From an uncultured Gammaproteobacteria bacterium (GTDB taxonomy: Bacteria > Patescibacteriota > Microgenomatia > CAZETR01 > Amesbacteraceae), in assembly GCA_964543035.1 (NCBI GenBank), contig CAZIVL010000001.1, forward strand, positions 45,714 through 109,713: a stretch of 64,000 nucleotides of DNA, given 5' to 3'. Shown here piece after piece: positions 17,842 through 59,024 of this stretch. The notes beneath the pieces were generated by a model that searched no databases, had not been told where the DNA came from, and was given only the letters and a program-made list of their open reading frames with translations. The stretch's first letter is position 1. Every line of letters begins with the position of its first letter. A program made the translations under genes and the position numbers.

Positions 17842-17880
17842 GTCATCCTGACCCCGCAGCTGCGGGGGAAGGATCCAGTA
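17842..17880 (+). repeat. Repeat family copy R1: GTCATCCTGA-CCCCGCAGCTGCGGGGG-AAGGATCCAGTA
   Basis: Seen directly, 12 nt after the Lon-like stop. Confidence 0.85.
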
Positions 17881-17887
17881 TCACCAA

Positions 17888-18109
17888 ATGAAAATAGTCC
17901 AGAACAAAAAATTACTCATAGGCTTAATCATTTACTTGCTGATTGGCATAATTTGGATGTGGACTGGATATACAAAATCAAACGCTCTGTTAATCGGTAT
18001 AGGCGCCGAGCCTGCTCCACTCGCCCAACTTATTACTAGTCCGTACATATATCTTTATATCCTCTTCTGGCCATTTTTTGTGTTTACCAATTTTCTGCAA
18101 ACTATATGA
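17888..18109 (+). CDS. Small membrane protein (hypothetical)
   Basis: 73 aa, two TM helices. Confidence 0.35.
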   Translation: MKIVQNKKLLIGLIIYLLIGIIWMWTGYTKSNALLIGIGAEPAPLAQLITSPYIYLYILFWPFFVFTNFLQTI

Positions 18110-18606
18110 AAATCGCCATTCTGTCAGACATTCACGACAATATTTGGAATCTTGAAAAAGCCCTTCCGCTTATCAAGTCCGCTTCCTGCAAAGCTCTGAT
18201 TTTTTGTGGTGACTTTGTCGCCCCATTTACTGCCAATCTAGTTTTCGAAATAGGCCTTCCCATTTATGCCTGTTTCGGCAATAACGACGAGGACCACCAC
18301 GCGATCGCTAGAAGATTAAATGCAACTCAATTATTTGCTTTAACTGATGAATTCGGAGAAGTCGAATTAGACGGCAAAAAGATTGCTTTCTGTCATTATC
18401 CAAAACTAGGAGAGTTACTAGCAGGTACTGGGGAGTACGCAGCCGTTTTTCATGGCCACACTCACGATGCTTATAACAAAAAAGTAGGGGAAACAATCCT
18501 AGCCAATCCCGGTAGCATCTGCGGTATCCAGGGTGGCAAGCCAGGTCTCGCCTCCTTCGGCATCTACGACACGACTGCTCATTCTTACGAGCAGATCACC
18601 CTATGA
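18106..18606 (+). CDS. Metallophosphoesterase (YfcE/MJ0936-like phosphodiesterase)
   Basis: Motifs SDIHDN, GDFVAP, GNND, GHTH. Confidence 0.75.
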   Translation: MKIAILSDIHDNIWNLEKALPLIKSASCKALIFCGDFVAPFTANLVFEIGLPIYACFGNNDEDHHAIARRLNATQLFALTDEFGEVELDGKKIAFCHYPKLGELLAGTGEYAAVFHGHTHDAYNKKVGETILANPGSICGIQGGKPGLASFGIYDTTAHSYEQITL

Positions 18607-18860
18607 AACTAATTCTGGCTATCCTTCTATGTATCAGCATAGTAGTTTTTTCTATCACACTTTTTATGAATAGCAGTTTCAAAACAGTTACCTACAAAAA
18701 AGCCAATCCAAAAGTAATTGATGCGTACAAAAAGCTAGAGGAAGAGCGTTCCAAGGGGAAAAGCATCTTTTTTACCCCAGTCCCAGATGATGTTTGCTTC
18801 GCCAAAGAAATATTTGGGAAAAGACTATTCGAAAGATGTATCAGCTACACTGATCTATGA
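18603..18860 (+). CDS. Small membrane-anchored protein (hypothetical)
   Basis: 85 aa, N-terminal TM. Confidence 0.35.
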   Translation: MKLILAILLCISIVVFSITLFMNSSFKTVTYKKANPKVIDAYKKLEEERSKGKSIFFTPVPDDVCFAKEIFGKRLFERCISYTDL

Positions 18861-18880
18861 CCACCAAACAATTCACCACC

Positions 18881-18956
18881 GTCATCCTGACCCCGCAGCA
18901 GCGGGGGAAGGATCCAGCTTATTTGTCCTATTCGACCCAACCGACCTATTTGTCAT
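18881..18956 (+). repeat. Repeat family copy R2 (GTCATCCTGA-CCCCGCAGCAGCGGGGG-AAGGATCCAGC) plus T-rich tail ending CTATTTGTCATATG fused to the udg start codon
   Basis: Seen directly; tail resembles the one after R4 (26114-26165). Confidence 0.85.
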
Positions 18957-19598
18957 ATGACCACACAGCAAAAGATTGAGGAACTAAACAAGATTGCCCA
19001 GGAGATCAGAGCCTTTAAGGGCTTGGATATCGCCAAAAATGCCAAAAATGCCGTTCCCGGCGAGGGCAGTCCTGATGCCAAGATTTTATTTATCGGCGAG
19101 GCCCCCGGCCAGGTAGAGGACGATTCTGGTCGCCCGTTTGTAGGCCGGTCTGGCCAGATGATGCGCACTGTTTTGACTGAGACTACTGGCATCAAACCGG
19201 AGGAAGTATTTATCACCAATATTGTGAAATACCGCCCTCCAGACAACCGGGATCCGTTTGATAATGAGATCGAGGCCTGTCGAGACTGGCTAGATCGCCA
19301 GATTGCCATCATTGCTCCCAAGATCATTGTCACCCTCGGGCGTTTCAGCATGGCCAAGTTCATCCCCGGCGTCACTATTTCAAAAGTCCACGGAATCCCT
19401 CACAACTCACAACTCACAACTGACAACCTACAACTAAAATTTATCGTCTTCCCCATGTTCCATCCCGCGGCTGCACTTCGCGGAACTGGCACCATGATGC
19501 AATTTAAGGGAGATTTTGTTAAACTGTACACACTTATCAACCCGCCCGCTCCTACCACTTCCCTAATTCAAGAAACAGTAGAAGAAGTACTCGCCTAA
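18957..19598 (+). CDS. Uracil-DNA glycosylase, family 4
   Basis: GEGSPDAKILFIGEAPG…GRPFVGRSGQ motif; HPAAALR near C-terminus. Confidence 0.85.
   Translation: MTTQQKIEELNKIAQEIRAFKGLDIAKNAKNAVPGEGSPDAKILFIGEAPGQVEDDSGRPFVGRSGQMMRTVLTETTGIKPEEVFITNIVKYRPPDNRDPFDNEIEACRDWLDRQIAIIAPKIIVTLGRFSMAKFIPGVTISKVHGIPHNSQLTTDNLQLKFIVFPMFHPAAALRGTGTMMQFKGDFVKLYTLINPPAPTTSLIQETVEEVLA
19401..19435 (+). repeat. Heptamer tandem array CACAACT x3-GACAACC-TACAACT inside the UDG gene
   Basis: Seen directly; encodes HNSQLTTDNLQL inserted between …KVHGIP and KFIVFPMFHP. Confidence 0.85.
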
Positions 19599-19603
19599 AT
19601 TTT

Positions 19604-21292
19604 ATGCAATTCACAAATCGTAATTTCAAGACTCAACCCGGCAGTCTCCAGATCTTTTCTCTCGGTGGCTTTGGTCGCGTGACCTCAAACATGTTTGTCT
19701 ACGAATACGAGTCAGACATTCTGCTTGTGGACTGTGGCATGGGCTTCCCCACCGAAGATATGTTGGGTGTGGACATCCTGATTCCAGACATCACCTATCT
19801 CCAGGATCGCATAGGCAAAATCCGGGGATTGGTCTTCACTCACGGCCACGAGGATCACACCGGCGCTCTCCCCTACATTCTCCCCAAGCTAGGCAAGATC
19901 CCGCTTTACGGCAGCAACTTAACAGCTCATCTGATCATGGAGAAATTGGCCGAATACGAAGGCATGCCCAAGCAGGTCAATGTCCTCCAGCCCGGCACTG
20001 TTTTACAGCTGGGCAAATTTACCGTGGAATCGGTCCGCATTTCTCATTCTATTCCCGATGCCACCAATCTTATTATCAAGACTCCCGCGGGCACCGTCTA
20101 TCATGGCTCGGATTTCAAATTCGATTTCACTCCAGTCGACGGCATTTTGCCAGACGTGGGCCGCATCGGTATGGCCGGTATTCAAGGCATCGATTTATTA
20201 CTCTCAGATTCACTCGGTTCCGAGAGGCGCGGTCTGACACCCTCCGAAAAGACTCTCGAAGGCATGTTCGAAAAAGAGATTGCAAAGTGCGAGGGTCGTT
20301 TTATTGTGACCACCATGGGCAGTAACATCAGTCGCTGGCGCCAGGCCGCCGAGGCCGCCATCCGTCACGGCAGACGTGTTGCCATTTCCGGCCGCAGCAT
20401 CGAGCGAAATATTGAAGTCGCGACCAAGCTTGGTTTCATAAATATCCCCAAGTCAGCTTTTGTCGAAGTGCGAGATGTAAAAAAGCTCAACCCAAAAAAT
20501 GTCTGTATTTTGATAGCAGGTTCTCAGGCCCAGCCAGGCTCTGCTCTAGAGCGTATGGCCACCGGAGATCATAGGGATCTCAAGTTGGCAGCCGGCGACA
20601 AAGTCGTGTTTTCCTCGGACTACATCCCAGGCAACGAGACTGCAGTCCAAGCCCTCATCGATTTGATAGCCAAGCTAGGTGTGGACGTGGTTTACTCCGG
20701 CATGACCGACAATCTTCATGTCTCCGGCCACGGCAGTCAGCAGGATCTGCTTCTTATGTTGGCACTCACCAAGCCCAAGTTTGCACTTCCCATAGGTGGT
20801 ACTTATCGCCACATGATCCAGTACGGAAGACTAGCCGAAGCCATGGGTTATGCCAAAGAGCGGATTTTACTTCCTGAGCACAATCAATCTATTATCGTGA
20901 CTCCTGGAAAAGCCGTCATGGGTCCAGTCATCGAGATGAAGAGTGTCATGGTCGATGGCTTGGGTGTTGGCGACGTGGGCAGTGTTGTTCTCAGAGATCG
21001 CAAGTCCCTGGCCGAAGAGGGTGTGGTCGTCGCCGTAGTCCAGCTCAGTCAGGCCAATTTGTCCAAAGTAGAAAATGTCGAGCTATTATCTCGCGGTTTC
21101 GTATTCGACAAGTACAATACGGGACTACTAGCCGAAGCCAGTGCCAAAGTGCGCCAGACTCTGGCCGCCAAATCTGGCAAGATCGAGTCTACAGTTCAGG
21201 CCCGCCAATACGTCTCAGATACTCTCGAGAGATTCTTGTTCGACAAGACTCACCGCCGCCCCATGATCCTCCCCGTCATTGTAGAGGTGTAG
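19604..21292 (+). CDS. rnj: Ribonuclease J (beta-CASP metallo-beta-lactamase)
   Basis: HGHEDH motif, beta-CASP region, 562 aa. Confidence 0.9.
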   Translation: MQFTNRNFKTQPGSLQIFSLGGFGRVTSNMFVYEYESDILLVDCGMGFPTEDMLGVDILIPDITYLQDRIGKIRGLVFTHGHEDHTGALPYILPKLGKIPLYGSNLTAHLIMEKLAEYEGMPKQVNVLQPGTVLQLGKFTVESVRISHSIPDATNLIIKTPAGTVYHGSDFKFDFTPVDGILPDVGRIGMAGIQGIDLLLSDSLGSERRGLTPSEKTLEGMFEKEIAKCEGRFIVTTMGSNISRWRQAAEAAIRHGRRVAISGRSIERNIEVATKLGFINIPKSAFVEVRDVKKLNPKNVCILIAGSQAQPGSALERMATGDHRDLKLAAGDKVVFSSDYIPGNETAVQALIDLIAKLGVDVVYSGMTDNLHVSGHGSQQDLLLMLALTKPKFALPIGGTYRHMIQYGRLAEAMGYAKERILLPEHNQSIIVTPGKAVMGPVIEMKSVMVDGLGVGDVGSVVLRDRKSLAEEGVVVAVVQLSQANLSKVENVELLSRGFVFDKYNTGLLAEASAKVRQTLAAKSGKIESTVQARQYVSDTLERFLFDKTHRRPMILPVIVEV

Positions 21293-21304
21293 TAAAATAT
21301 ATTT

Positions 21305-21869: not shown

Positions 21870-21895
21870 AAAGGATCCAGTATAATTTCTAGTTT

Positions 21896-23915: not shown

Positions 23916-26093
23916 ATGCCCAGAAGTAGGTCTATTTTTGGCCGGCGTAAATTCCAGGTCAAGCTCAAACAATCCACAGTCAATTCTATTGGCGCCTCTA
24001 TCCTCTTCGCCATTTCTGGCCTCATCTGGCTCTCATTTATTCGCCAGGGCACTCTCCTTATTAGTCTCAACGATTTTCTGGTCACCAATCTCGGTTTTAT
24101 TCCCACGCTTTATTTCCCCCTCATTCCCATCTTTGGGGGACTGATGATTACCAAGATCAAGACTTCTCTTTCTTCTGCCAATGTTTTTGTGGGTAGTATT
24201 TTGACCCTCGCTGCCCTCATCGGTCTTTTTCACGATGGCTTTGTGGGTGCCCAAGTCTGGCAAAATCTCACCACTCTTATCTATTACCCCGGCGCCTTTT
24301 TGTTCTTGGTCGCCACTCTTGGCATTGGTCTCATTATTTCTTTCAACATTCCTTTTGAGGACGTTGTAAATTTTGTTTTGGATCTTCTTCGCAAGCTGTT
24401 TGGCATCTTTAGTCGGTTCAAAGGTCCAGACCTGGCCAATACTCCCTTAAATCGCCCCATCAAATTGGGTGGCCTTACGGGCAAACCTGCCGTTGTTCCC
24501 GCCAAACAAGCCTCGCTCTTTTCCAGTAAGCCAGTGGAGATCAAGGGCATGGGCACCAAGCCCGTTAACCAATCACCAATCACCAATAACCAAAAACCAA
24601 TAACCCCTCTCCCAGCCGCCGCCACCGACACTGTCTGGCATTATCCACCTCTTACTTTGTTGTCCGAAAATATTTCTGGTAAGGCCGACCGGGGAAATAT
24701 AAACAACAATGCCGCCATCATCGAAAAGACTCTCGAGGCTTTTGGCATTACGGCCAAAGTCATCGAGGTAAACATGGGTCCCGCCGTCACCCAATATGCC
24801 CTCGAAGTCGCCATCGGTACTAAGCTCTCCAAGATTTCGGCCTTAGGGTCTGACTTGGCTTTGGCCCTCGCCGCTCCCACGGGACAGATTCGCATCGAAG
24901 CCCCGATTCCCGGAAGGTCTCTGGTGGGTATCGAGTTACCTAACCGTTCTCCCGAGTTTGTCAGCCTGCGAAAGATCCTGGAGTCGGATAATGCCAAAAA
25001 TCACAAGTCCAAGCTGGCAGTTGCCATGGGTCTGGACGTCTCCGGCGAGCCTATTGTCGCCGATATCGCCAAGATGCCCCACGTTTTGATAGCAGGGAGC
25101 ACCGGTTCCGGAAAATCAGTCGCCATCAACTCATTTATCGCCTCTCTGCTCTTCAGAGCCAGTCCTCAGGAGGTCAATCTCATTATGGTGGATCCCAAGC
25201 GTGTGGAGCTGACGGGTTACAATGGCATTCCTCATCTTTTGAGTCCTGTGATCGTCGAGCCCGAAAAAGTCTTGTCCGCTCTCAAGTGGGCCACCGGCGA
25301 GATGGAACGCCGCTACAAGCTCTTTGCCGAGGTGGGAGTCAGAAATCTCGAGGGTTACAACGAGCTCTCCGGCTTCCAGGCCCTTCCTTACATAGTTATC
25401 GTGATAGACGAGCTCGCCGATATCATGTTGTTTGCCCAAGTTGAGGTAGAAGACACTATTACTCGTATCGCCCAGATGGCCCGAGCCACCGGTATTCACC
25501 TCGTGTTGGCCACTCAGCGCCCGTCTGTGGATATCATCACGGGTCTTATAAAGGCAAACATCCCGACTCGCATCGCCTTCTCAGTCTCTTCCATGATCGA
25601 TTCAAAAGTGGTCTTGGATCAGCCCGGAGCCGAGAAATTGTTGGGCAAAGGGGACATGCTTTATATTCCCCCAGATGCTGCCAAGCCTACTCGCATCCAG
25701 GGTTCATTTGTGTCAGACAAGGAGATCAAGAGCCTGATCGAGTTTTTGAAAAAGCAGGGTGTGGCTCCGCATTACACTGAAGAAGTGACCAATACTCCGA
25801 TCGGAAAGATTGGTGGTCGTGGCGGCCGGGGTAGCAGCTTCATCGCTCCCAATGGTGAGGACCGGGATGAATTGTTTGAGGATGCCCTCAGGCTCATCGT
25901 CCAGCACAACACCGCATCTGCTTCTTTCTTACAAAGAAAGCTCAGTATTGGTTACGCCCGTGCGGCTCGAGTCCTCGATGAGCTCTACGGAGCCGGCGCC
26001 ATTGGTCCAGCCGACGGGGCCAAGCCCCGCGACATCATGGTCTCCGACGTAACCTCATTCCTCAATCCAGCGCCTCAAGAACAGTCATCCTGA
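23916..26093 (+). CDS. ftsK: DNA translocase FtsK/SpoIIIE
   Basis: N-terminal TM helices; Walker A GSTGSGKS; winged-helix gamma domain at C-terminus. Confidence 0.9.
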   Translation: MPRSRSIFGRRKFQVKLKQSTVNSIGASILFAISGLIWLSFIRQGTLLISLNDFLVTNLGFIPTLYFPLIPIFGGLMITKIKTSLSSANVFVGSILTLAALIGLFHDGFVGAQVWQNLTTLIYYPGAFLFLVATLGIGLIISFNIPFEDVVNFVLDLLRKLFGIFSRFKGPDLANTPLNRPIKLGGLTGKPAVVPAKQASLFSSKPVEIKGMGTKPVNQSPITNNQKPITPLPAAATDTVWHYPPLTLLSENISGKADRGNINNNAAIIEKTLEAFGITAKVIEVNMGPAVTQYALEVAIGTKLSKISALGSDLALALAAPTGQIRIEAPIPGRSLVGIELPNRSPEFVSLRKILESDNAKNHKSKLAVAMGLDVSGEPIVADIAKMPHVLIAGSTGSGKSVAINSFIASLLFRASPQEVNLIMVDPKRVELTGYNGIPHLLSPVIVEPEKVLSALKWATGEMERRYKLFAEVGVRNLEGYNELSGFQALPYIVIVIDELADIMLFAQVEVEDTITRIAQMARATGIHLVLATQRPSVDIITGLIKANIPTRIAFSVSSMIDSKVVLDQPGAEKLLGKGDMLYIPPDAAKPTRIQGSFVSDKEIKSLIEFLKKQGVAPHYTEEVTNTPIGKIGGRGGRGSSFIAPNGEDRDELFEDALRLIVQHNTASASFLQRKLSIGYARAARVLDELYGAGAIGPADGAKPRDIMVSDVTSFLNPAPQEQSS
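24571..24605 (+). repeat. Heptamer tandem array AATCACC x2-AATAACC-AAAAACC-AATAACC inside the ftsK linker
   Basis: Seen directly; encodes NQSPITNNQKPIT. Confidence 0.85.
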
Positions 26094-26165
26094 GCGAAGC
26101 GAAGGATCCAGTACATTTCATTTTATTCGTCTTATCTGACTTATCGGTCTTATTTGTCATATTGC
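26085..26165 (+). repeat. Repeat family copy R4 (GTCATCCTGAGCGAAGCGAAGGATCCAGTA; supplies the ftsK TGA stop) plus T-rich tail ending CTTATTTGTCATAT
   Basis: Seen directly; tail followed by TATAAT and the rodZ-like start. Confidence 0.85.
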
Positions 26166-29028: not shown

Positions 29029-31072
29029 AACAAAACGCGAGTATTTATTCGCGCTTGAGGTCAGTCACTCCGTCGTAAAAAGTGCTATCTGGACCGTAGC
29101 CAACAATCATCCTCAAGCAGTTTCAGTCAGCAGCTGTTTTTCTTGGGATGATGCCTCAGACGACAGTCTCATAGAAGCAGCCGACCAAGCTCTTACCGAG
29201 AGTAGCTTGCATCTCGATCATGCCGGCAAGATTCAGCCCGAAAAAGTGATTTTCGGCCTCCCCTCGGACTGGATTACTTCAGAAGAAAAGATTGTTCCCG
29301 AAAAGCTGCCAATTCTAAAAAAGCTTACCACCAAGCTGTCGCTCACGGCTATCGGTTTTGTTGTTACCCAAGAAGCCATTGTCCGTTTTATTCATAGCCA
29401 AGAAGGCGTCCCCACGACTGCTATTTTAGTCGGTGTCCGCCCTCATATTATTGAGCTGTCTCTCGTCAAGCTGGGCAAGATTCTCGGAACTCACATCATC
29501 AAGCGCGGGCAGGATATTGCCGAAGACGTCATCGAAGGACTATCTCGTTTTCCTCACCAGGATATGTTGCCGTCCCGCATTCTGCTTTACGACTCATCCC
29601 TGGATCTAAATGAAATAAAACAGCAATTACTTTCCCATCAGTGGCTCTCACATCATACTAAGTTGCCCTTTTTACACTTTCCCAAAGTAGAGATCTTGCC
29701 AGAAGATCATACTGTAAAAGCCATCGCTCTCTCAGGTGGCTCCGAAGTCGCAGTTTCACTAGGTCTTATGTCAGAGCCAGCGACGATCGAACCTGAAGCC
29801 CCTCCAGTGATTCCTGAAGTATCCGCCCCAGATGACAACTTAGGTTTTATCGAACACGAGGTCCAAGAAGAGGAGGTGCCAGAGGTAGTAAAATCACGTC
29901 TGACTATGCCCCAGATTTCTCTGCCCAAGTTTTCTGCCTCTCCCATTATCATCATTGTGGTTCTTCTCATTTTGGTGATCGGCTCTTCAGCTGCTTTGTG
30001 GTTCTTGCCGAGGGCTACAGTGGATCTGACTATTGAACCCAAAAAGACCGAGGTCAGTTTTGATCTTGTAGTGGACCCCAAAGGAAACGCCACCAGCTCC
30101 GGCTCTCCTATTATCTTGGGCAAACTCATGGAGACCCTGGCCTCTTCCCAAAAGACTACTGACGCCACCGGCTCAAAATTAGTCGGTGACCGCGCCAAGG
30201 GAGAAGTAACTATGATAAACGGCACGACTGCGACCCGGTCTTTCCCAGCCGGGACCGTCATCATTTCTCCAAGTGGGCTGAAGTTTACTCTCGACGCCGC
30301 AGTTTCTGTTGCATCGGCCTCAGGGACCGCTGATCCAAATTCATATCAGCCCGGCAAATCCAATGTAAAAGTGACCGCAGAAGCCATCGGCACCGACTCA
30401 AATATTTCCGCCGGCACCTCATTTAGAGTCGGCACTTTTTCCACCCTAGATTATGTGGCAAAAAATGACGCCGCTTTTGGGGGCGGCAGCAGTAGGCAAG
30501 CCAAGGCCATTTCAAAAACCGATATCGAGAGTCTGAGGTCTTCTCTTTCCGATTCCCTAAAGACTCAAGCCCAAGAGGATCTTGAAGCCAAGATTGATGA
30601 TGACAACAAAATAATTTTGGAGACTATTGTCTTAACGACTACTTCCGAAAAGTTCAATCACAAAGAAGGCGATATCGCAGACAATGTCACCCTCGAGCTG
30701 TCAGTGAAGGCTTCAGCCGTCAGCATTGCCAAAGCGGATCTCGATGCCGTGGTGGAAGAACAATTGGGTCCCAAGATTCCCGAAGGCTTTACTCCCACAG
30801 ATTCCGTCACTCCCCATTTTGTTTTCAAGTCCACCAAAGATGGCCTAACCAGTCTTACAACCACTGTGGAAGCAGAGCTCATTCCTGTATATGACCAGGT
30901 GCAAATCGCAAAAAATATCGTAGGCAAAAGGCCAGCCACGGCCCAGGAATATCTTTTGAGCCTGCCCCAAGTCAGAGACGTCCAGATGTCATACTTCCCG
31001 CCAGCTCCCGGGTTTCTCGTTACGCTTCCTCACGTGGCCAAAAATATTAAGCTAAATCTGGTCTCTCCCTAA
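28997..31072 (+). CDS. Actin-fold (FtsA/PilM-like) cytoplasmic domain - single TM - large extracytoplasmic domain fusion protein
   Basis: N-terminal ~330 aa align in pattern to FtsA/PilM (YLFALEV…, …TAILVGVRPHIIELSLV…) but nucleotide-binding glycine motifs are degenerate; TM at ~aa 320-345; start overlaps alaS 3' end. Confidence 0.5.
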   Translation: MQLPFLKKKTETKREYLFALEVSHSVVKSAIWTVANNHPQAVSVSSCFSWDDASDDSLIEAADQALTESSLHLDHAGKIQPEKVIFGLPSDWITSEEKIVPEKLPILKKLTTKLSLTAIGFVVTQEAIVRFIHSQEGVPTTAILVGVRPHIIELSLVKLGKILGTHIIKRGQDIAEDVIEGLSRFPHQDMLPSRILLYDSSLDLNEIKQQLLSHQWLSHHTKLPFLHFPKVEILPEDHTVKAIALSGGSEVAVSLGLMSEPATIEPEAPPVIPEVSAPDDNLGFIEHEVQEEEVPEVVKSRLTMPQISLPKFSASPIIIIVVLLILVIGSSAALWFLPRATVDLTIEPKKTEVSFDLVVDPKGNATSSGSPIILGKLMETLASSQKTTDATGSKLVGDRAKGEVTMINGTTATRSFPAGTVIISPSGLKFTLDAAVSVASASGTADPNSYQPGKSNVKVTAEAIGTDSNISAGTSFRVGTFSTLDYVAKNDAAFGGGSSRQAKAISKTDIESLRSSLSDSLKTQAQEDLEAKIDDDNKIILETIVLTTTSEKFNHKEGDIADNVTLELSVKASAVSIAKADLDAVVEEQLGPKIPEGFTPTDSVTPHFVFKSTKDGLTSLTTTVEAELIPVYDQVQIAKNIVGKRPATAQEYLLSLPQVRDVQMSYFPPAPGFLVTLPHVAKNIKLNLVSP

Positions 31073-31747: not shown

Positions 31748-31791
31748 CCACGTTGTTCCCGCAAACGCGGGAATCTTGTATATTTACATTT

Positions 31792-31962
31792 ATGTCTCAA
31801 GAAGAAGAAAAATCTGATCAAACCAAAGGCTTTGCGCCGAGTGTGACTGGTGCACTTCTTACAGCACTAGTCAGAGATAATGAAGCAAGAGAGGATCCTC
31901 CTATCCAAATTGTGTTGGCCTCTGAAAAGACACGCGAGCCTCTAGATACTTCGTCATCCTGA
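31792..31962 (+). CDS. Small hypothetical protein whose stop lies in repeat R5
   Basis: 57-aa ORF (MSQEEEKSDQ…); weak. Confidence 0.2.
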   Translation: MSQEEEKSDQTKGFAPSVTGALLTALVRDNEAREDPPIQIVLASEKTREPLDTSSS

Positions 31963-31992
31963 CCCCGCAGCTGCGGGGGAAGGATCCAGTAC
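31953..31992 (+). repeat. Repeat family copy R5: GTCATCCTGA-CCCCGCAGCTGCGGGGG-AAGGATCCAGTA
   Basis: Seen directly; identical to R1. Confidence 0.85.
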
Positions 31993-43717: not shown

Positions 43718-44176
43718 ATGTCTCACAATGTATTTGGAAAAAAACTCAATCGTGACACTGGACAACGCCAAGCTCTTCTAAAAGGGCTCGCGGGGGCTAT
43801 CATTCGCTCCGAGAGTATCGAGACTACCGAGGCCAAAGCCAAAGCCGCCAAAGATCTGATCGAAAAGCTCATTACCCAAGCCAAGCGGGGATCAGTGAGT
43901 GACTTGCGCCAGATCGAGTCCACCATAGTCAGCAAAGATCTTATAGACAAACTAGTGCACGACATCGCCCCCAGATTCAAGACCAGAAACGGTGGCTATC
44001 TTAGACTCATCAAGACTGGTATCAGAGCTGGAGACAACGCATCTTTAGTTCGCATGGAATTTGTGGCCGCTTCAGTCGCAGTCGCTCCGGAAGCCCCCAA
44101 AGCCAAAGCCCCCGCCAAAAAGACCACCCCTGTTAAAAAAGTTTCTTCAAAGAAAAAAGCGTCATCCCGAGTGTAA
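43718..44176 (+). CDS. rplQ: 50S ribosomal protein L17 (C-terminus extended through repeat R11)
   Basis: L17-like core; last codons …SSRV* are encoded by the GTCATCCCGAGTGTAA repeat variant. Confidence 0.9.
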   Translation: MSHNVFGKKLNRDTGQRQALLKGLAGAIIRSESIETTEAKAKAAKDLIEKLITQAKRGSVSDLRQIESTIVSKDLIDKLVHDIAPRFKTRNGGYLRLIKTGIRAGDNASLVRMEFVAASVAVAPEAPKAKAPAKKTTPVKKVSSKKKASSRV

Positions 44177-44191
44177 CGAGGGACCAGTACC
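44161..44191 (+). repeat. Repeat family variant R11: GTCATCCCGAGTGTAACGAGGGACCAGTACC between rplQ and rplM
   Basis: Seen directly; supplies the rplQ stop. Confidence 0.6.
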
Positions 44192-45063: not shown

Positions 45064-45211
45064 GTCATCCTGAACGCACCCCTGTCATCCTGAGCGTCCT
45101 GTACCACTCATATCACACTCGCTTTTTTATTGTCATCCTGGACGCCCTGTACCACTCATATCACACTCGCTTTTTTATTGTCATCCTGAACGCAGTGAAG
45201 GATCCAGTACC
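45064..45211 (+). repeat. Cluster of four GTCATCCTG[A/G] heads including a tandem 48-bp duplication (GTCATCCTGRGCGYCCTGTACCACTCATATCACACTCGCTTTTTTATT x2), ending in …GAAGGATCCAGTACC
   Basis: Seen directly; begins 5 nt after the rpsI stop; the 3' part encodes the C-terminus and stop of the minus-strand GIY-YIG gene. Confidence 0.85.
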
Positions 45212-45486
45212 GCCAGATCATTCCATCCAGGATTATTCATTTCAATCAATTCCAGTTTCTTTTGTCTCTTCCACCCCTTAATTTTTTTCTCCACTTCAAT
45301 CGCTTCCATCGGCCTATCAAACTCCTCAAAATAAACTAACATCTTCAAACTATATTTACTAGTAAACTCCGAAAACCCTCCCTGTCTGTGCTGCCAAATT
45401 CGCTTTACTAGATCTCCTGTCATCCCTACATACAACGTTCCGTTTCTCTTGTTAGTTACAATATATACCCAATATTTTTTATCCAC
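45181..45486 (-). CDS. GIY-YIG nuclease family protein (YhbQ/UPF0213-like)
   Basis: YWVYIV…NGTLYVGMTGDLVKRIWQH…; 101 aa; GTG start; flanked on both sides by repeat clusters. Confidence 0.7.
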   Translation of the reverse strand: MDKKYWVYIVTNKRNGTLYVGMTGDLVKRIWQHRQGGFSEFTSKYSLKMLVYFEEFDRPMEAIEVEKKIKGWKRQKKLELIEMNNPGWNDLAVLDPSLRSG

Positions 45487-45514
45487 ATTTTCATTATGTC
45501 ACCCCAGTCGAACC

Positions 45515-45597
45515 TGTCATTCTGAACCGCAGTGAAGAATCCAGCTCATCCCCTTGTCATCCTGACCCCGCAGCTGCGGGGGAAGGATCCAGTACCA
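45515..45597 (+). repeat. Two adjacent repeat copies (GTCATTCTGAACCGCAGTGAAGAATCCAGC and GTCATCCTGACCCCGCAGCTGCGGGGGAAGGATCCAGTACC)
   Basis: Seen directly, between two minus-strand genes. Confidence 0.85.
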
Positions 45598-47727: not shown

Positions 47728-48410
47728 CTGGGTACTGCTACACTAAATACGTGTCCAAGAAGTTTGGTTTGGCAGTACTGACTGCTGGAGTAATGGCCGC
47801 AGCCGGCATGGGATTTAAGAATTTTGTAAACCCTTATGAGACAGTTTACAAAATAGCCGATGGGGACACTGTGATATTAGAAAACAACAAACAAGCAGTC
47901 AGATTATTTGGTATAGATTCCCCCGAACCAGAGTATTGTTACGGCGCTGAGTCGACGCGAAGACTTGACCAGCTTCTAAAGAAACGCAAAGTTCAGATCA
48001 AAGAACCGGTCGTGGACAAGTTTGGTCGCATTGTGGCGCTGGTTTATGTAGACGGCAAATCCATAAATGAGGCCATGATTCGAGAAGGTTTTGCCGCTTA
48101 CAGGAGCGAGCCGGGGAGTGAAAAAGAGACCATGAAAGCGGCGCACGAATATGCCAAGACAAACAAGATTGGTATTTATTCCAGTGCTTGTTCAGACGAG
48201 GCGCCAACAGATCCCAAATGTGATATCAAAGGCAACCACGATTTAGATCGCAACGAATTTGTATATCTTTTACCTGAATGTCCATATTATGGAGTGGTAA
48301 ATGTTCGTCGTTTCGAAGGGGACCAGTGGTTCTGTAGTGAGAAGGAAGCGAGAAAAGCCGGCTTCACCATTTCCCCCGCCTGCTCCATGGGCACAAATCG
48401 CTCAAATTAA
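47724..48410 (+). CDS. Membrane-anchored thermonuclease (SNase-like) with Cys-rich C-terminal extension
   Basis: SNase motifs (…DGDTV…RLFGIDSPE…, …GRIVALVYVDGKSINEAMIREGFA); N-terminal TM; C-terminal ~70 aa with 5 Cys. Confidence 0.7.
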   Translation: MTGYCYTKYVSKKFGLAVLTAGVMAAAGMGFKNFVNPYETVYKIADGDTVILENNKQAVRLFGIDSPEPEYCYGAESTRRLDQLLKKRKVQIKEPVVDKFGRIVALVYVDGKSINEAMIREGFAAYRSEPGSEKETMKAAHEYAKTNKIGIYSSACSDEAPTDPKCDIKGNHDLDRNEFVYLLPECPYYGVVNVRRFEGDQWFCSEKEARKAGFTISPACSMGTNRSN

Positions 48411-49169
48411 CTTCAACTGCTTCGTCTCGGTCGTGCGATAACTACTTAGTACACTCAACACCTCGTGCAACTTATTTTCAGGAAATAAGTGTTTTGGATA
48501 TATCTCGATTATTTCGATGTTATGTTTCTTGGCCAGTTCCAGTTTTCTATTCTTTAGCTGAGAATAAGCAGCAAGCTGTCCATCGAGTCCAAAAAATTCA
48601 ATCCATTTATCTCCAACTACAAAATCTACAGTAAATCCTTCGTCACCAGGATACGGAGCCCATCTTTGGTGATTAATTTTCTTACAACTCAACCAGTCGT
48701 CAATAATCATTTCAGATACTGAATCGCATACATGTCCATCCCGGGCTATATACTTTTTCGAAAATAATACCGGGTTTGGATCAAATCCTGCAGCCACAAT
48801 AGCCTTATTCCAAGTCCCAAAACGCCCTCTGGTTGCATGATAGTACTTAAACTCTCTTTTTAGAGGGATCCTCCCATTAGCCTTATAAAATTCTTGTATT
48901 CCATGTAGGATCACTTCTTTTGGGACGATCTGACTGTCACTATGACACTTGGCTGAACAATATCTTTTCCTACTTACAAACTCCTTGTTACAAAACTCAC
49001 ACTTTTTTCTCACCCCTGGATGCTTTGGGAATTTTGTGTTATTCACAGTTACAGCGCAACTACGCGAACAGTAATAGGAAACACACCTCAAGTCACTCAC
49101 TTTTCTATAAAAAACATTGCCACAATTTGGCCTACTACATACCAGGGTAATTCCATTACTTTTCCTCAT
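48402..49169 (-). CDS. Zn-finger protein with homing-endonuclease-associated (GRFGTWNKAIVAAGF) motif and C-terminal PD-(D/E)xK-like domain; putative nuclease
   Basis: Multiple CxxC pairs at N-terminus; C-terminal …VDFVVGDKWIEFFG… resembles restriction-endonuclease-like fold. Confidence 0.4.
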   Translation of the reverse strand: MRKSNGITLVCSRPNCGNVFYRKVSDLRCVSYYCSRSCAVTVNNTKFPKHPGVRKKCEFCNKEFVSRKRYCSAKCHSDSQIVPKEVILHGIQEFYKANGRIPLKREFKYYHATRGRFGTWNKAIVAAGFDPNPVLFSKKYIARDGHVCDSVSEMIIDDWLSCKKINHQRWAPYPGDEGFTVDFVVGDKWIEFFGLDGQLAAYSQLKNRKLELAKKHNIEIIEIYPKHLFPENKLHEVLSVLSSYRTTETKQLKLI

Positions 49170-53568: not shown

Positions 53569-53598
53569 GTCATCCTGAGTCGCAGCGAAGGATCCAGT
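53569..53598 (+). repeat. Repeat family copy R8: GTCATCCTGAGTCGCAGCGAAGGATCCAGT
   Basis: Seen directly, 7 nt after the rny stop. Confidence 0.85.
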
Positions 53599-54018: not shown

Positions 54019-54049
54019 GTCATCCTGAGCCGCCGCGAAGGATCCAGGC
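54019..54049 (+). repeat. Repeat family copy R9: GTCATCCTGAGCCGCCGCGAAGGATCCAGGCTCAGG (with CCTGAGCC/GGCTCAGG inverted repeat)
   Basis: Seen directly, 5 nt after the hup stop. Confidence 0.85.
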
Positions 54050-54178
54050 TCAGGCAATAAATATCAGATACACATTGCCAAGAGATAATGGCATTGTAGA
54101 ATAAGCAAGTTCCCACGAAAGAATATAAAAACGAGGCGCAAGCCTCGTTTTTGGTCCCAGATAGAATAAAATAGATCC

Positions 54179-55771: not shown

Positions 55772-55783
55772 TAATATTAGAGG

Positions 55784-56581: not shown

Positions 56582-56583
56582 CC

Positions 56584-57369
56584 ATGACTGCAAAAAGAGT
56601 GATCAAATTGCTGTTTGTATATTCCAGGATTAGTCAGATGACGGCCTGGCAGCATCGTTTTGGTTATTTTTTCCGTCTATTCAGAGTCGTCCTCGATCTG
56701 GGTATTTCGCTCATTTTTATAAACATTATTTTCCTAAAGACTCCCATGCTTGGCACTTGGTCCCAGCCCGAGGCCTTTCTGATCTACGCGCTTTATCAGA
56801 TCGTCGATTGCATATATGTATTTTTCTGCGGAGACAGCTTCCGAAATATGGGGATAGATATCAGGAGAGGCAATCTCGATGGATTTTTTACAAAGCCTGT
56901 CGACAGCCAGTTCATTGTCAGTTTCCGGACTATCTTTCCCTCAAGTATTTATAGAGTGATGTTGGCATTTGGTATCTTGTACTACGCCCTCGCAAAGCTG
57001 GCAGTGAATCCAGATATAAATAGCATCATCTGGTTCATCGTTAGCATGATCTCTGCCGTTCTTATCCACTATGCTCTAGTGTTCATGGCCGCGACCACAG
57101 CTTTCTGGTCCAGTGGGGGAGAAGCAGCAGAGATTATGAATACCGTCTTTTCCATTAGTAAATATCCCCTCGATGTCTTCAAGCGCCACACTATACTATT
57201 GCTCACCGTAATTCCTCTAATATTTATTACAACTGTTCCCGCAAAAGTTTTGTTAGACAAGCCAGGTCAGCTCCACTATTTCGCACCCTTCCTCGCAATT
57301 ATTTTATTGATTCTCTCGCGCAAGTTCTGGCACCACGCCCTCCGCCATTATTCTTCCGCCTCGTCTTAA
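56584..57369 (+). CDS. ABC-2 family transporter permease, type B paralog 2
   Basis: Ends …HHALRHYSSASS. Confidence 0.65.
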   Translation: MTAKRVIKLLFVYSRISQMTAWQHRFGYFFRLFRVVLDLGISLIFINIIFLKTPMLGTWSQPEAFLIYALYQIVDCIYVFFCGDSFRNMGIDIRRGNLDGFFTKPVDSQFIVSFRTIFPSSIYRVMLAFGILYYALAKLAVNPDINSIIWFIVSMISAVLIHYALVFMAATTAFWSSGGEAAEIMNTVFSISKYPLDVFKRHTILLLTVIPLIFITTVPAKVLLDKPGQLHYFAPFLAIILLILSRKFWHHALRHYSSASS

Positions 57370-57623
57370 TAGACATCATCGTGGGATCCCACATCAATTA
57401 GTATCACTTCATTCTCAGAAGCAAAAACAAAAATTACCCGTTTCTTATATGATATCGAAAAAGAAAATTGCCCCCTTAGTTTGCCAGTCAAAGCATGGGT
57501 TTTTAGTTTAGGATTGTATACGTCTTTAGATAACCAGCCCACTCTCTCGTCCAAGTTCTTTCTTTCCTCGTTCGATAATTTCCTCGCACTTTTTTTAAAA
57601 TGCGAAGAGACGCCAATCTTCAT
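57366..57623 (-). CDS. RelE/ParE-superfamily toxin
   Basis: 85 aa; …LKTHALTGKLRGQFSFSISYKKRVIFVF…ILIDVGSHDDVY pattern. Confidence 0.65.
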   Translation of the reverse strand: MKIGVSSHFKKSARKLSNEERKNLDERVGWLSKDVYNPKLKTHALTGKLRGQFSFSISYKKRVIFVFASENEVILIDVGSHDDVY

Positions 57624-57629
57624 ATTTGG

Positions 57630-57914
57630 TTACTTCAATAGATCAGAAACTTTCTGGCCAGGCTTTAGCCAGGTAGTTTTACCCTTTTTGTATTCAGATA
57701 TAGCCTCGTCGCGAACTCTGAGAAGATAATCCTCTTCTAAATGTTTCAACCTTTCAGCCTGAGCATTGTATGCACTAGGAGACATCAGAACCACATCGGG
57801 TACACCATTACTGACCACAACCATAGGTTCAGAAGTAGCTCTGACTTTATCAGCAAGCGTTCTATACTTCCTTTGCAGATCGGCTACAGTTGTAATCATG
57901 GGTATCAAGTTCAT
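57630..57914 (-). CDS. Phd/YefM-family antitoxin
   Basis: 94 aa; N-terminal …TVADLQRKYRTLADKV…EPMVVVSNGVPDVVLMSPSAYN… typical of Phd/YefM; upstream of toxin with 6-nt spacing. Confidence 0.65.
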   Translation of the reverse strand: MNLIPMITTVADLQRKYRTLADKVRATSEPMVVVSNGVPDVVLMSPSAYNAQAERLKHLEEDYLLRVRDEAISEYKKGKTTWLKPGQKVSDLLK

Positions 57915-58000
57915 ATAATTATCATATTACTATATATATGACCAATCGTCAATATTTGCCTAGTTGATAAACTAACAGTTTGAAGTGATAATCAATCTAC

Positions 58001-58984
58001 ATGCCAGTCATTGAAGTCAAAGGTCTCCAAAAGCACTTCCAGGTTCATCAAAAAGAGCCCGGTTTGGCCGGCTCCTTTAAGTCTCTGTTTCACAGAAAGT
58101 ACAATCTCGTAAAGGCCGTAGACAATGTGTCTTTTGAGATCGGCGAGGGCGAGCTAGTAGGCTTCATAGGTCCAAATGGCGCCGGCAAGACCACGACTTT
58201 GAAGACCTTATCCGGTCTTCTATACCCCAGTGCTGGTCACGTCTCAGTCTTGGGCTACACACCCTGGGACCGAAAGCCCGCATTTCAAAAGCAGTTTTCT
58301 CTGGTCATGGGCCAAAAAAATCAGCTCTGGTGGGATCTGCCAGCTATTGAGTCGTTTATCCTAAACAAAGAAATATACGAAGTCCCAGACGCTCAGTACA
58401 AAAAGACCCTAGACGAGTTAGTGGAGCTTTTGGATGTCAAAGATATTTTAAAGGTCCAGGTACGCAAATTGTCTTTGGGCCAAAGGATGAAAATGGAGCT
58501 CATAGCCGCCCTCATTCATTCTCCCAAGATTCTCTTTTTAGACGAGCCCACCATCGGTCTAGACGTAGTCATGCAAAAAAAGATGCGTGATTTCATAAAA
58601 GCATATAACCAAAAGTTCAACGCCACTATCATCCTGACTAGTCACTACATGGACGATGTCAAAGAATTATGTGAGCGCGTCATCATCATCGATCACGGTC
58701 GCATTCTCTTCGATGGCAAGCTGGCAGACATTATCAAGAAGTTTGCCGATCACAAGCTGATTACGGTTGTGTTCAGTAAAGCCGTAGACGAAAAAGTTTT
58801 GGCAAAGATGGGAACCGTCAAAGAGTTTGAGGCTCCCCGGGCTGTCATTTCTGTAAAAAGAGACAAAGCCACCAAGATTGCCGCCAAGCTTTTGGAGGAT
58901 CTTCCCGTGGAGGATCTCAACATCGAAGAACCCAAGATCGAAGACATCATCCGTGAAGTCTTCACCGGCAAGGATTTTGCCTAA
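58001..58984 (+). CDS. ABC transporter ATP-binding protein
   Basis: Walker A GPNGAGKTT, signature LSLGQRMK, Walker B LFLDEP. Confidence 0.85.
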   Translation: MPVIEVKGLQKHFQVHQKEPGLAGSFKSLFHRKYNLVKAVDNVSFEIGEGELVGFIGPNGAGKTTTLKTLSGLLYPSAGHVSVLGYTPWDRKPAFQKQFSLVMGQKNQLWWDLPAIESFILNKEIYEVPDAQYKKTLDELVELLDVKDILKVQVRKLSLGQRMKMELIAALIHSPKILFLDEPTIGLDVVMQKKMRDFIKAYNQKFNATIILTSHYMDDVKELCERVIIIDHGRILFDGKLADIIKKFADHKLITVVFSKAVDEKVLAKMGTVKEFEAPRAVISVKRDKATKIAAKLLEDLPVEDLNIEEPKIEDIIREVFTGKDFA

Positions 58985-58991
58985 CAGTTGT

Positions 58992-59024
58992 GTCATCCTG
59001 AGCCTCAGCGAAGGATCCAGGCTC
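58992..59024 (+). repeat. Repeat family copy R10: GTCATCCTGAGCCTCAGCGAAGGATCCAGGCTCAT
   Basis: Seen directly, 7 nt after the ATPase stop and ending 2 nt before the next start. Confidence 0.85.

Follow-up and report, generated by a model that had tools for sequence, protein, structure and literature searches.

The window, by which is meant the whole stretch of 64,000 nt analysed, derives from an Amesbacteria-like CPR bacterium and contains a dispersed GTCAT-hairpin-TCCAG repeat represented by 11 full copies, three 5' heads and one 3' half, together with a gene for a small GIY-YIG nuclease (45181..45486, - strand; hereafter ssn) that has copies on either side and overlaps one of them. Every copy is on the + strand, which is the C-rich strand, and the placement is almost entirely intergenic, 0-20 nt past stop codons.

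Identification and structure of the repeat

Searches of the window with GTCATCCTGA, allowing at most one mismatch, returned 20 matches, all on the + strand, where 5.05 were expected; 20 was reached in 0 of 100 shuffles. The same threshold applied to GAAGGATCCAG gave 11 matches, again all +, against 1.72 expected. A covariance model built from repeat copies of many genomes, with which both strands were scanned with filters off, recovered the 11 full copies on the + strand only with scores of 27.8-50.9 bits, the best score below these being 11.4 bits. These results establish a real repeat family restricted to one strand in the window, as had been claimed in a first-pass annotation of the sequence, the coordinates of which were correct to within 1 nt.

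The repeat is an oriented hairpin of 28-37 nt with the layout 5'-GTC-[AT CCT GA (core) GA AGG AT]-CCAG-3', in which the tandem GA/GA of the stem is invariant. In all full copies the hairpin is preceded by H-GTC-A-Y and followed by A-T-C-Y-R-G. Exact arms recur in copies on at least 120 stretches, which represent more than ten phyla. Alignment of 40 distinct 28-nt copies revealed pairing in 97.5% of cells, and changes on both sides of the stem were present in 28 cells versus 5.3 in shuffles, a value equalled in 0 of 500 shuffles, with four of the seven pairs covarying. Within the window, the stem ATCCT/AGGAT is replaced by ATTCT/AGAAT in the copy at 45516 and by ATCCC/GGGA in that at 44161. The compensatory changes support the hairpin, in agreement with the earlier proposal that it is maintained in this way. 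The predicted folding energy of the short-core copies is weak (z about -0.5).

Location of the copies

The full copies away from ssn, all on the + strand and detected with the covariance model, adjoin the 3' ends of genes. Copies with a long core are located at 17842..17878, 11 nt past the stop of an AAA+/Lon-lid ATPase gene, and at 18881..18917, 20 nt past an 85-aa ORF, the latter with one loop change and followed on the 3' side by a tail comprised of a 9-nt phased repeat that extends into the udg start codon. The T-rich tail described in the first-pass annotation as abutting the next start codon was thereby confirmed for udg; the corresponding tail ahead of the rodZ-like gene ends about 20 nt before the start. 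The 3' half remnant, AAAGGATCCAG, is at 21870..21880 (+), immediately 3' of the stop of a 129-aa ORF. The copy at 26084..26111 (core GCGAAGC, 50.9 bits) contributes the TGA at 26091-26093 of its 5' arm as the stop codon of ftsK (ORF 23916-26093, with FtsK domains), and the TGA of the long-core copy at 31953..31989 ends a small ORF 3' of the sortase gene, with the ruvX start 25 nt beyond the copy. A variant copy at 44161..44187 (arms ATCCC/GGGA with one T deleted, 27.8 bits) encodes the C-terminus of L17 (...ASSRV*) including the stop, and the rplM start is 5 nt further. The remaining copies are at 53569..53597 (7 nt past the RNase Y stop), 54019..54047 (5 nt past the stop of the hupA-like HU gene) and 58992..59020 (7 nt past the stop of an ABC ATPase gene and 6 nt ahead of the next start codon). 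Copies that do not supply a stop codon or last residues start 5-20 nt beyond the upstream stop. The location at gene 3' ends and the donation of stop codons and last residues were thus as first described.

A stable hairpin at 7259..7307 (+; DNA fold -11 kcal/mol, z -5.6), the inner part of which resembles the repeat core, had been listed as a rearranged variant. It was not matched in the covariance model scan and, since both the GTC and the CCAG flanks are missing, its membership is doubtful, and it would rank as a degenerate relative at most.

The GIY-YIG gene and adjoining copies

The + strand between rpsI and ssn contains three truncated 5' heads (45064..45179, with starts at 45064, 45084 and 45132) and, within this cluster, two 48-nt tandem units at 45083-45130 and 45131-45178 (family D7, 94% identity). 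A full copy with the core ACGCAGT follows at 45180..45207 (+, 49.0 bits), antisense to ssn and overlapping its 3' end such that the last seven codons and stop of ssn (...DPSLRSG*) are the reverse complement of the copy. Two further full copies on the + strand are located beyond the other end of the gene: one with arms ATTCT/AGAAT at 45516..45544 (37.6 bits), 30 nt upstream of the ssn start, and one detected with the covariance model at 45556..45592 (family D1) with the long palindromic core CCCCGCAGCTGCGGGG and a DNA fold of -10.4 kcal/mol (z -3.4), flanked by ssn and the 3' end of a - strand gene encoding 230 aa. The region 45180-45592, between - strand genes, is the sole locus that tests the earlier claim that orientation is independent of neighbouring genes; elsewhere the copies follow + strand genes.

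The deduced product of ssn is a single-domain protein of 101 aa, initiated at GTG, with residues 4-77 matching the Pfam family GIY-YIG (PF01541, E=1.7e-16). The ORF had been seen in the first-pass annotation without connection to the repeats. There are 433 homologues, and the 120 listed have 80-140 aa, mostly 94-116, with GIY-YIG as the sole Pfam domain in each. The only solved structures detectably related in sequence are the UPF0213/YhbQ-type small GIY-YIG proteins 1zg2 and 1ywl, which share the fold family and size; however, these matches are weak (E=1.6e-5 and 1.8e-3) compared with the 50-67% identity to homologues flanked by Ssn-related motifs (SRM), and we know of no repeat association for UPF0213. 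Residues Y8, Y19, R29, H33 and E66 are invariant between the protein and its homologues. Three of these, Y8, Y19 and E66, are offset by two residues from Y6, Y17 and E64 of Neisseria, mutation of which abolished cleavage (Chenal et al. 2025, Nat Commun, PMC11893778). The NCBI-derived gene call of 80 aa, starting at Met22, would be without the first catalytic Tyr. The full GTG-start frame is kept in the orthologue of the relative L133, and this conservation of the longer frame, the sole basis for the choice, argues for the GTG start.

The link between gene and repeat extends to metagenomic homologues. In 80 metagenomic loci, the density of repeats with this architecture is 2.4 per kb up to about 300 nt from ssn versus 0.11 per kb beyond, a 22-fold difference; at least one copy is present in 41 of the 80 loci and copies on both sides in 28. 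In the typical cassette ssn is enclosed by inverted terminal copies in the manner of an insertion sequence, whereas both flanking copies in the window are on one strand. Homologues P0003 (67%) and P0111 (59%) have GA-type repeats like those of the window on their flanks, and several homologues of other lineages end in ...PSLRSG, indicating that the same overlap of ssn and repeat recurs.

Comparison with syntenic relatives

The window and L133 both contain copies and ssn, and the orthologous sites in L137, L138 and L139 are empty. The site of the RNase Y copy (53569..53597) is without repeat in L138 and L139, and L17 of L137 terminates at its own stop with no copy present. A copy is present at the L17 locus of L133, where its TGA is the stop; L13 is also altered by a repeat in L133, and the spacer between rpsI and ssn contains a different array of heads and full copies at the same place. 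Since syntenic relatives are without them, the copies are insertions, the outcome of a comparison with related genomes that had been suggested at the outset.

The position of the copies raises the question of a function in RNA, in which the hairpin would be transcribed with the upstream gene and terminate or shield mRNA from 3' exonucleases. E. coli REP sequences are capable of such effects. Nine or ten copies are 0-20 nt past the stop of a co-oriented + strand gene, the hairpin structure is conserved, genes for PNPase, RNase J and RNase Y are within the window, and a mild excess of copies in other genomes is co-oriented with the upstream gene (58 versus 37). However, a T-run follows none of the copies and none is terminator-like by score, and hupA has a separate canonical terminator (hairpin and T-run, 54127-54152) conserved in relatives that are without the repeat, the copy at 54019 being wedged between the hupA stop and this terminator. 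The missing T-run and the conserved terminator retained by hupA led to rejection of a terminator role, one of those first proposed. Furthermore, a protective hairpin would need neither the conserved non-palindromic GTC and CCAG flanks nor the invariant GA/GA, at the ssn locus all three full copies run antisense to the adjoining genes, syntenic relatives manage without the repeat, and no match was found in Rfam. A primary function at RNA 3' ends is therefore unlikely, and a secondary RNA-stabilising effect is possible.

The presence or absence of copies between syntenic relatives is also expected of non-autonomous miniature mobile elements, selfish and with no host function, for which Ssn would be the mobilising nuclease and the copies spread by the ssn cassette or another enzyme. 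Three long-core copies identical to each other in unrelated flanks, the truncated heads, tandem units and fast-changing arrays adjoining ssn, and the inverted terminal copies typical of the cassette are in accord with this explanation. On the other hand, no strand-transfer activity is to our knowledge associated with a lone GIY-YIG nuclease, the window ORFs scanned yielded no transposase, and target-site duplications are not definable with spacers too diverged between relatives. The miniature element of the first-pass annotation is a viable secondary interpretation, in which the difference between syntenic relatives in the presence of copies is observed and a mechanism of mobilisation is hypothetical. 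Mobility as the whole explanation is quite improbable, although it is compatible with recognition of the repeats by Ssn, and the same idea was raised by the authors of PMC11893778.

Relationship to known repeat systems

RPE of Rickettsia and Correia elements of Neisseria are likewise dispersed palindromes that may be located within genes or at gene ends and add coding sequence or stops, as found here for L17, FtsK and Ssn in the window and L13 in L133. Those elements are about 100-150 bp in length and bounded by terminal inverted repeats, with TA target duplications in the case of Correia elements, in contrast to the single hairpins of 28-37 nt with asymmetric flanks and a GIY-YIG partner in the window.

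REP/BIME repeats, served in Proteobacteria by RAYT proteins related to IS200/IS605 Y1 transposases, are ssDNA hairpins recognised by a small dedicated enzyme, with copies flanking its gene. The repeat of the window shares with them a superficial likeness as a short intergenic imperfect palindrome with an oriented 5' flank, and a BIME-like alternating orientation is seen in arrays of relatives L129-L132. Pfam or NCBIfam scans of roughly 60 ORFs of the window revealed no Y1/HUH transposase; the partner in the window and relatives is instead the GIY-YIG gene, and the 5' flank is GTC rather than the GTAG of REP. A RAYT-type transposase encoded elsewhere, as first suggested, is therefore not the candidate partner. 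DNA-uptake sequences of a competence pilus were also considered, a secreted SNase-type nuclease and recA being encoded in the window. Uptake sequences are short, non-hairpin, on both strands and common within genes, whereas the window copies are almost all intergenic, on a single strand and hairpin-forming. Either assignment, REP or uptake, is highly improbable. The NTS of Neisseria, related to the repeat, acts after uptake and lowers transformation (PMC11893778), and the uptake signal of the first-pass annotation is unlikely.

The closest likeness is to the Ssn/NTS system, represented in N. meningitidis by SsnA and the NTS/dRS3 repeats. Binding of Ssn to the oriented hairpin in ssDNA is followed there by cleavage immediately upstream; the NTS/dRS3 of Neisseria is one of the SRM, and general features of REP/RAYT were discussed in the same report (PMC11893778). 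Both repeats are oriented hairpins of about 28 nt with a 5' GTC(A/T)Y flank and a 3' ATC-Y-R-G flank, sharing the GTC-[AT...AT]-CYRG architecture and the flank positions of the NTS consensus CGTCATTCCCGCGMAVGCGGGAATCYRG and published SRM motif. Both are present in many intergenic copies, and in both a gene encoding a single-domain GIY-YIG protein of about 95-100 aa has copies to either side. Exact copies of the NTS consensus flank close homologues of the 101-aa protein: the surroundings of P0068, 58% identical to it (5e-36), contain two exact NTS-consensus copies and five matches to the published SRM motif. The sequence CGTTGTTCCCGCAAACGCGGGAATCTTG at 31752..31779 (+), just past the sortase stop, is a degenerate relic of a canonical-type NTS, as judged by comparison with the NTS consensus of PMC11893778.

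There are also differences. The stem of the window repeat, ATCCT-GA-(core)-GA-AGGAT, contains a tandem GA/GA internal loop and a T:A pair, on account of which the published degenerate SRM search motif and the NTS consensus matched none of the window copies, two or three stem positions being off. The copies in the window are all on one strand, so that ssn is flanked by direct and not inverted copies, and several give essential genes a stop codon or the C-terminal residues. Patescibacteria are unmentioned in the text of PMC11893778, and the host here is a CPR bacterium resembling Amesbacteria.

On this basis the repeats are very probably SRM, and the GIY-YIG nuclease most likely recognises them on single-stranded DNA. 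The protein is likewise a probable Ssn-type enzyme, a placement made through the proxy homologue P0068. The binding site of a dedicated protein thus becomes the most likely of the roles first listed, with ssn encoding the candidate, and the earlier interpretation was overall partly supported. From homology with characterised SsnA enzymes we infer the enzymatic activity of the protein, which would bind the hairpin plus the adjoining 3' C, depend for catalysis on GTC on the 5' side of the hairpin, cleave ssDNA a few nucleotides 5' of GTC, and be inert toward dsDNA, RNA and the complementary strand. The inserted copies have built up at the small number of neutral sites that this very compact genome offers, for the most part right after stops, a placement that is the reason why the TGA of the 5' arm or codons of the element now terminate several genes. 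The cellular role could be the trimming of incoming or exposed ssDNA, leading to limited recombination, and/or selfish maintenance of the ssn cassette. The repeat of the window would then be a sequence variant of the kind described in 2025, present in an ultra-small (CPR) bacterium.

The repeat family and its position at gene ends

The number of repeat arms in the window exceeded expectation, with 20 occurrences of GTCATCCTGA (at most one mismatch) versus 5.05 expected and 11 of GAAGGATCCAG versus 1.72 expected. A covariance model was built from 40 distinct 28-nt copies drawn both from the window and from numerous other genomes, and both strands of the window were searched with filters off. 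The 11 full copies scored 27.8-50.9 bits while the next best match scored 11.4 bits. These results confirm that the repeat family described in the first-pass annotation is real and uniformly oriented, since all 11 full copies and every match to either arm are on the + strand. The canonical full copies begin at 17842, 18881, 26084, 31953, 45180, 45516, 45556, 53569, 54019 and 58992, each carrying the flanks [T/C/A]GTCAT...ATCCAG (10/10). The variant copy at 44161 (+) has kept the 5' flank, but its 3' arm is missing the T. Three truncated copies that retain the 5' arm (5' heads) begin at 45064, 45084 and 45132 (+), the latter two within 48-nt tandem units, and a 3' half copy is located at 21870 (+).

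The window is ~81% coding and all full copies (11 per 64 kb) are intergenic or touch only the final codons of a gene. The stop codon of ftsK is the TGA within the 5' arm of a copy, the variant copy contains the end of the gene encoding L17 (...ASSRV*), and other copies begin 5-20 nt past the stop codons of genes encoding an AAA+ ATPase, an 85-aa ORF, RpsI, RNase Y, HU and an ABC ATPase, in agreement with the gene-end position and donated stop codons proposed earlier.

A 49-nt sequence at 7259-7307 (+), previously considered a rearranged variant, was not counted as a family member since both flanks are absent and the covariance model gave no match. It forms a very stable hairpin (-11 kcal/mol, z -5.6 by DNA folding) with a core-like centre and lies between the divergently oriented fusA (-) and dnaJ (+). 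Two repeat copies directly precede four phased 9-nt units (YTATYNGWC) at 18919-18958 and 26123-26162 (+). The two arrays are 75% alike, one extending to the start codon of udg and the other stopping ~20 nt short of the rodZ-like start. The phased motif was absent from all 219 other loci, and could be a protein-binding array or promoter element. Short-period direct repeats rich in A and C, of the ACTCACAACTCACAAC and ACCAATCACCAATAAC types, were also observed on the + strand at 10428, 19405, 24561, 32195, 52208, 60974 and 61403, mostly within ORFs where they probably encode low-complexity linkers.

Full copies preceded at a distance of ~20 nt by an isolated 5' head (GTCAT plus arm) recur in several phyla, being found at 45064-45093 of the window and at genomic or metagenomic loci L125, L133, L143, L158, L066, L210 and L217. 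Heads were located 19-25 nt upstream of 14 of 360 full copies, some of which are from redundant contigs of one organism, versus three or fewer at any single other upstream distance. One possibility is that these heads are scars of cleavage and repair. Two short-read Logan contigs (L121 and L122), carrying an rpsI gene identical to that of the window, stop 69 nt past the rpsI stop codon within the cluster of heads, indicating that the repeats break assemblies.

Structure of the repeat

The repeat has the layout 5'-GTC-[AT CCT]-GA-(core)-GA-[AGG AT]-CCAG-3'. DNA folding of each copy produced a near-uniform topology comprised of an outer stem of 5 bp and an inner stem, separated by a 2x2 GA/GA internal loop. 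This topology was shared by nearly all copies, although the folding energy was persuasive only for those with long cores (-10.4 kcal/mol, z about -3). Real support for the hairpin comes instead from covariation. In the alignment of 40 distinct copies, 97.5% of cells were paired and changes on both sides of a pair were found in 28 cells versus 5.3 in shuffles, a number reached by 0/500 shuffles. Covariation was evident in 4/7 pairs (CG/UA/GC and GC/AU), consistent with the earlier proposal that the hairpin is maintained by compensatory change, and G9, A10, G18 and A19 were unchanging. The arms ATCCT/AGGAT are replaced by ATTCT/AGAAT in copy 45516 and by ATCCC/GGGA in copy 44161. Cores closing with at least 2 bp accounted for 79% of 137 copies from other genomes versus 9% of shuffled cores.

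Insertion into gene ends and independence from terminators

Comparison with syntenic relatives revealed that the copies are insertions. Locus L133 (~82% nucleotide identity) has the ssn-like gene, encoding a single-domain GIY-YIG nuclease, after rpsI as in the window, but its heads and full copies are arranged differently. In L133, the gene encoding L17 is ended by the TGA of a repeat copy, and another copy (9958-9985) lies within the 3' end of rplM (9531-10001), yielding an L13 tail of ...IVSSHPERSEGSSTIQA* and a protein of 156 aa versus 139-141 aa in L137 and L138. The same region of L137 (~84% identity) contains neither the ssn-like gene nor copies and its L17 ends on its own stop codon, and the more distant relatives L138 and L139 have no copies after the genes encoding RNase Y and HU. 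No target-site duplication was identified by comparison of filled with empty sites, the spacers being too diverged for alignment. The clustering after stop codons is best read as insertions that would survive at only the neutral positions of very short spacers, in which case the TGA of the 5' arm, present in one frame, would serve as a stop codon incidentally.

The first-pass annotation had also raised the possibility that the repeats terminate transcription. The terminator-like sites in the window include no repeat copy, and all copies are followed by CCAG then mixed sequence. Copy 54019 is wedged between the stop codon of the HU gene and the hairpin plus T-run terminator of that gene (54127-54152), which is conserved in L138 and L139 where the repeat is absent. 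Thus, the copies are independent of terminators, and a role as intrinsic terminator is rejected for lack of a direct T-run and of a terminator-like score. A second suggestion, that the repeat is a DNA uptake sequence (DUS/USS), is likewise rejected. Such sequences are short, non-palindromic, present on both strands and frequent within genes, whereas the repeat is a 28-37-nt hairpin on one strand with nearly all copies intergenic.

A GIY-YIG gene is linked to the repeat

The ORF at 45181-45486 (-) encodes a 101-aa protein comprised of a single GIY-YIG domain (PF01541, E=1.7e-16, residues 4-77) and no other domain. The last seven codons and stop codon of the gene (...DPSLRSG*) are the reverse complement of copy 45180-45207. 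Two further copies (45516-45544 and 45556-45592) are located on the other side, 30 and 70 nt upstream of the start codon, and the cluster of heads lies beyond the 3' end. The physical link between repeat and gene is not confined to the window, as copies also flank the gene in relatives L123, L125-L133, L036 and L061. The sequence ...PSLRSG also ends several homologues from other lineages, indicating that the same overlap of gene and repeat recurs.

A search retrieved 433 homologues. Those listed (120) range in length from 80 to 140 aa, mostly 94-116, and GIY-YIG is the sole Pfam domain in each. Residues Y8, Y19, R29, H33 and E66 were invariant among 12 homologues. The closest solved structures are UPF0213 proteins, weakly matched (E=1.6e-5). 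The public gene call (P0001) is 80 aa starting from Met22 and is without the first catalytic tyrosine. The first 21 aa of the frame with the GTG start are conserved residue for residue in L133, suggesting that the public annotation is probably truncated.

The association was further investigated with 80 metagenomic loci in which the density of repeats of the generic architecture was 2.4 per kb up to ~300 nt from the gene and 0.11 per kb beyond, a 22-fold difference. Copies were present at 41/80 loci and on both sides of the gene at 28/80. In the usual cassette, a sense copy is located ~35 nt upstream (39 sense vs 16 antisense) and the copy 20-30 nt downstream is antisense (36 antisense vs 17), so that the terminal copies are inverted. 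Downstream of another ssn homologue, at ~3330-3890 of loci L129-L132, two types of repeat alternate in +/- orientation with a pitch of ~76-97 nt. The copy number of this array varies between samples, and the arrangement resembles the REP BIME arrays of E. coli.

It was originally proposed that the repeat might be the binding site of a dedicated protein such as a RAYT-type transposase encoded elsewhere. The role as binding site is retained as the most likely one, by homology, with the GIY-YIG gene within the window as the partner; the transposase is not. No Y1 (HUH) RAYT transposase was found among the ~60 window ORFs scanned and the flank is GTC rather than GTAG, results that reject the REP/RAYT reading. 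PADLOC reported nothing for the Ssn protein. The same tool matched a 255-aa protein with a homing-endonuclease-associated HNH_repeat, encoded at 48402-49169 (-), to candidate defence family PDC-S69 (E=2.4e-12); the gene adjoins those for tRNA-Pro and a secreted SNase-type nuclease.

Relation to the Ssn family and its target motifs

SsnA of Neisseria meningitidis, which belongs to CDD family cd10448, is a protein of 94 aa with a single GIY-YIG domain and catalytic residues Y6, Y17 and E64 (PMC11893778). Its target is the oriented hairpin repeat NTS (CGTCATTCCCGCGMAVGCGGGAATCYRG), to which it binds solely as ssDNA and solely on one strand; it cleaves a few nt upstream of the repeat and reduces transformation by DNA bearing NTS (PMC11893778). 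Homologues across many phyla have Ssn-related motifs (SRM) on their flanks (PMC11893778). The window protein likewise has a single GIY-YIG domain without an additional DNA-binding domain and retains the catalytic Tyr, Tyr and Glu, with Y8, Y19 and E66 apparently corresponding to the Neisseria residues shifted by two. The homologue P0068 from a genome of candidate division CPR2 is 58% identical (BLASTP 5e-36), and on the flanks of its gene the NTS consensus is matched exactly twice and the published SRM motif five times. By this proxy, the window protein would belong to the Ssn family (cd10448). Homologues P0003 (67% identical) and P0111 (59%) are flanked by repeats with the tandem GA/GA stem (GA-type), as in the window.

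The repeat has the same architecture as NTS, GTC-[ATCCTGAGC GAA GCGAAGGAT]-CCAG compared with GTC-[ATTCCCGC GMAV GCGGGAAT]-CYRG. The published flanks are HGTCWY (5') and RNCYNB (3') for SRM and CGTCAT...ATCYRG for NTS (PMC11893778), and the 10 canonical copies conform to the SRM flanks. As described for SRM, the repeat is multi-copy and mostly non-coding (11 full copies in 64 kb) and flanks a small GIY-YIG gene, at the window locus on both sides. No window copy matches the full search motif, HGTCWYN(0-2)YYVSBRHN(0-5)WNVSBRGN(0-2)RNCYNB, or the 28-nt NTS consensus; the sole match to the SRM motif in the window is a chance site at 30130 (-), and the motif also misses the GA-type copies of relatives. 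Since the misfit is restricted to the stem (the T:A pair and tandem GA/GA) and both flank parts fit, the repeat represents a distinct stem class of SRM rather than a literal member of the motif. Ssn-type systems were already known, published in 2025; the present case is a stem-class variant, in a CPR host, with the copies unusually on one strand. Just past the sortase stop codon, a sequence at 31752-31779 (+), CGTTGTTCCCGCAAACGCGGGAATCTTG, is a degenerate version of NTS in its canonical Neisseria form. This relic suggests that a second SRM class formerly resided in the genome.

Orientation of the repeats

The strand exclusivity in the window is genuine. The ~10 independent sites are all on the + strand (two-sided binomial p ~0.002), a result confounded by the + orientation of nearly all flanking genes. 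The sole informative locus is that of the ssn-like gene, where three full copies are antisense to both adjoining genes on the - strand and those upstream have the opposite orientation to that in the usual cassette. The + strand of the window is C-rich irrespective of gene direction, with GC3 skews in + strand terms of -0.273 for + genes and -0.068 for - genes. In L096, a second contig of the genome containing L133, the + strand skew is unusually strong (+0.26) and four copies are on the - strand with one on the +. A general link between orientation and GC skew across phyla was rejected, with 67 negative versus 70 positive. Multi-copy loci in other phyla mostly mix strands, as do those of other Patescibacteria, indicating that the one-strand pattern is specific to this lineage.

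A reading that unites these features is that the repeats persist on one replication strand only, so that orientation records the direction of replication and Ssn acts on the replicating DNA of the cell as well as incoming DNA. Separately, the GA/GA stem may mark a distinct specificity class of Ssn. We regard these readings as speculative and rather unlikely. As part of the former, the cassette of the window may have lost the usual inverted flanks in conformity with the one-strand rule. Two causes of the pattern are possible: cutting by Ssn of forward copies exposed as ssDNA at the replication fork, purging one strand, or insertion of copies by a fork-coupled ssDNA route like that of IS200/IS605 elements.

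Distribution and host

A scan of one genome per species identified at least 120 stretches with exact arms. The matches listed are from Fibrobacter, Opitutaceae/Lacunisphaera, Bacteroidota, Alphaproteobacteria, organisms labelled Gammaproteobacteria, Chlorobiales, Acidobacteriota, Melainabacteria, Planctomycetes, Ignavibacteria and, within Patescibacteria, Absconditabacteria, Gracilibacteria, Peribacteria and Saccharibacteria. The GA/GA-stem class with identical arms spans more than 10 phyla. A GIY-YIG gene is present in only 3/120 of the 8-kb stretches listed, as expected if a single gene or a small number of genes serves the dispersed copies. The long-core variant GTCATCCTGACCCCGCNNNNGCGGGGGAAGGATCCAG gave no matches in a metagenome scan, and no repeat match was found in Rfam at the gathering threshold for the whole window or at E<=1 for the ssn locus. 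Literature searches with the raw repeat sequence or the encoded peptides GTCATCCTGAG, VILSEAKD, CHPERSEGS and SLRMT returned unrelated primers only.

The gene content of the window is housekeeping, and the best named relatives of its RecA are Candidatus Amesbacteria (Microgenomates, CPR/Patescibacteria) with ~82% identity. Contig L096 is titled 'uncultured Gammaproteobacteria bacterium' and shares WGS prefix CAYHIN01 with L133. Since L133 is ~82% identical to the Amesbacteria-like window, either this title is incorrect or the bin combines more than one organism. The highest-scoring model for the RNase P RNA at 63294-63556 (+) was archaeal, not bacterial (RF00373, 98 bits with a gathering score of 84), and the sole nucleotide-level match between the window and L138 (63327-63543, 82% identity) overlaps it.

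Proposed role and implications

Based on the characterized homologues, the protein would bind the + strand hairpin on ssDNA and would cut a few nt 5' of GTC. In the cell, ssDNA bearing the motif, incoming or otherwise exposed, would be trimmed and recombination thereby limited. Natural competence is reported for cultivated Saccharibacteria, another lineage of Patescibacteria (PMC10633639).

The results provide an enigmatic repeat with a concrete partner within the window. Essential genes, namely those encoding L17, FtsK and, in a relative, L13, have had their 3' ends rewritten by the repeats, which also break short-read assemblies, and this is of consequence for the annotation of MAGs. The published search motif overlooks the whole tandem GA/GA stem class, and consequently neither the surveys of such systems nor the catalogue of biotechnologically useful ssDNA-cutting specificities is complete. 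The one-strand arrangement offers a simple genome-wide test of Ssn action on ssDNA exposed during replication. Overall, the findings place an Ssn-type pairing of protein and site among ultra-small, host-dependent CPR bacteria.
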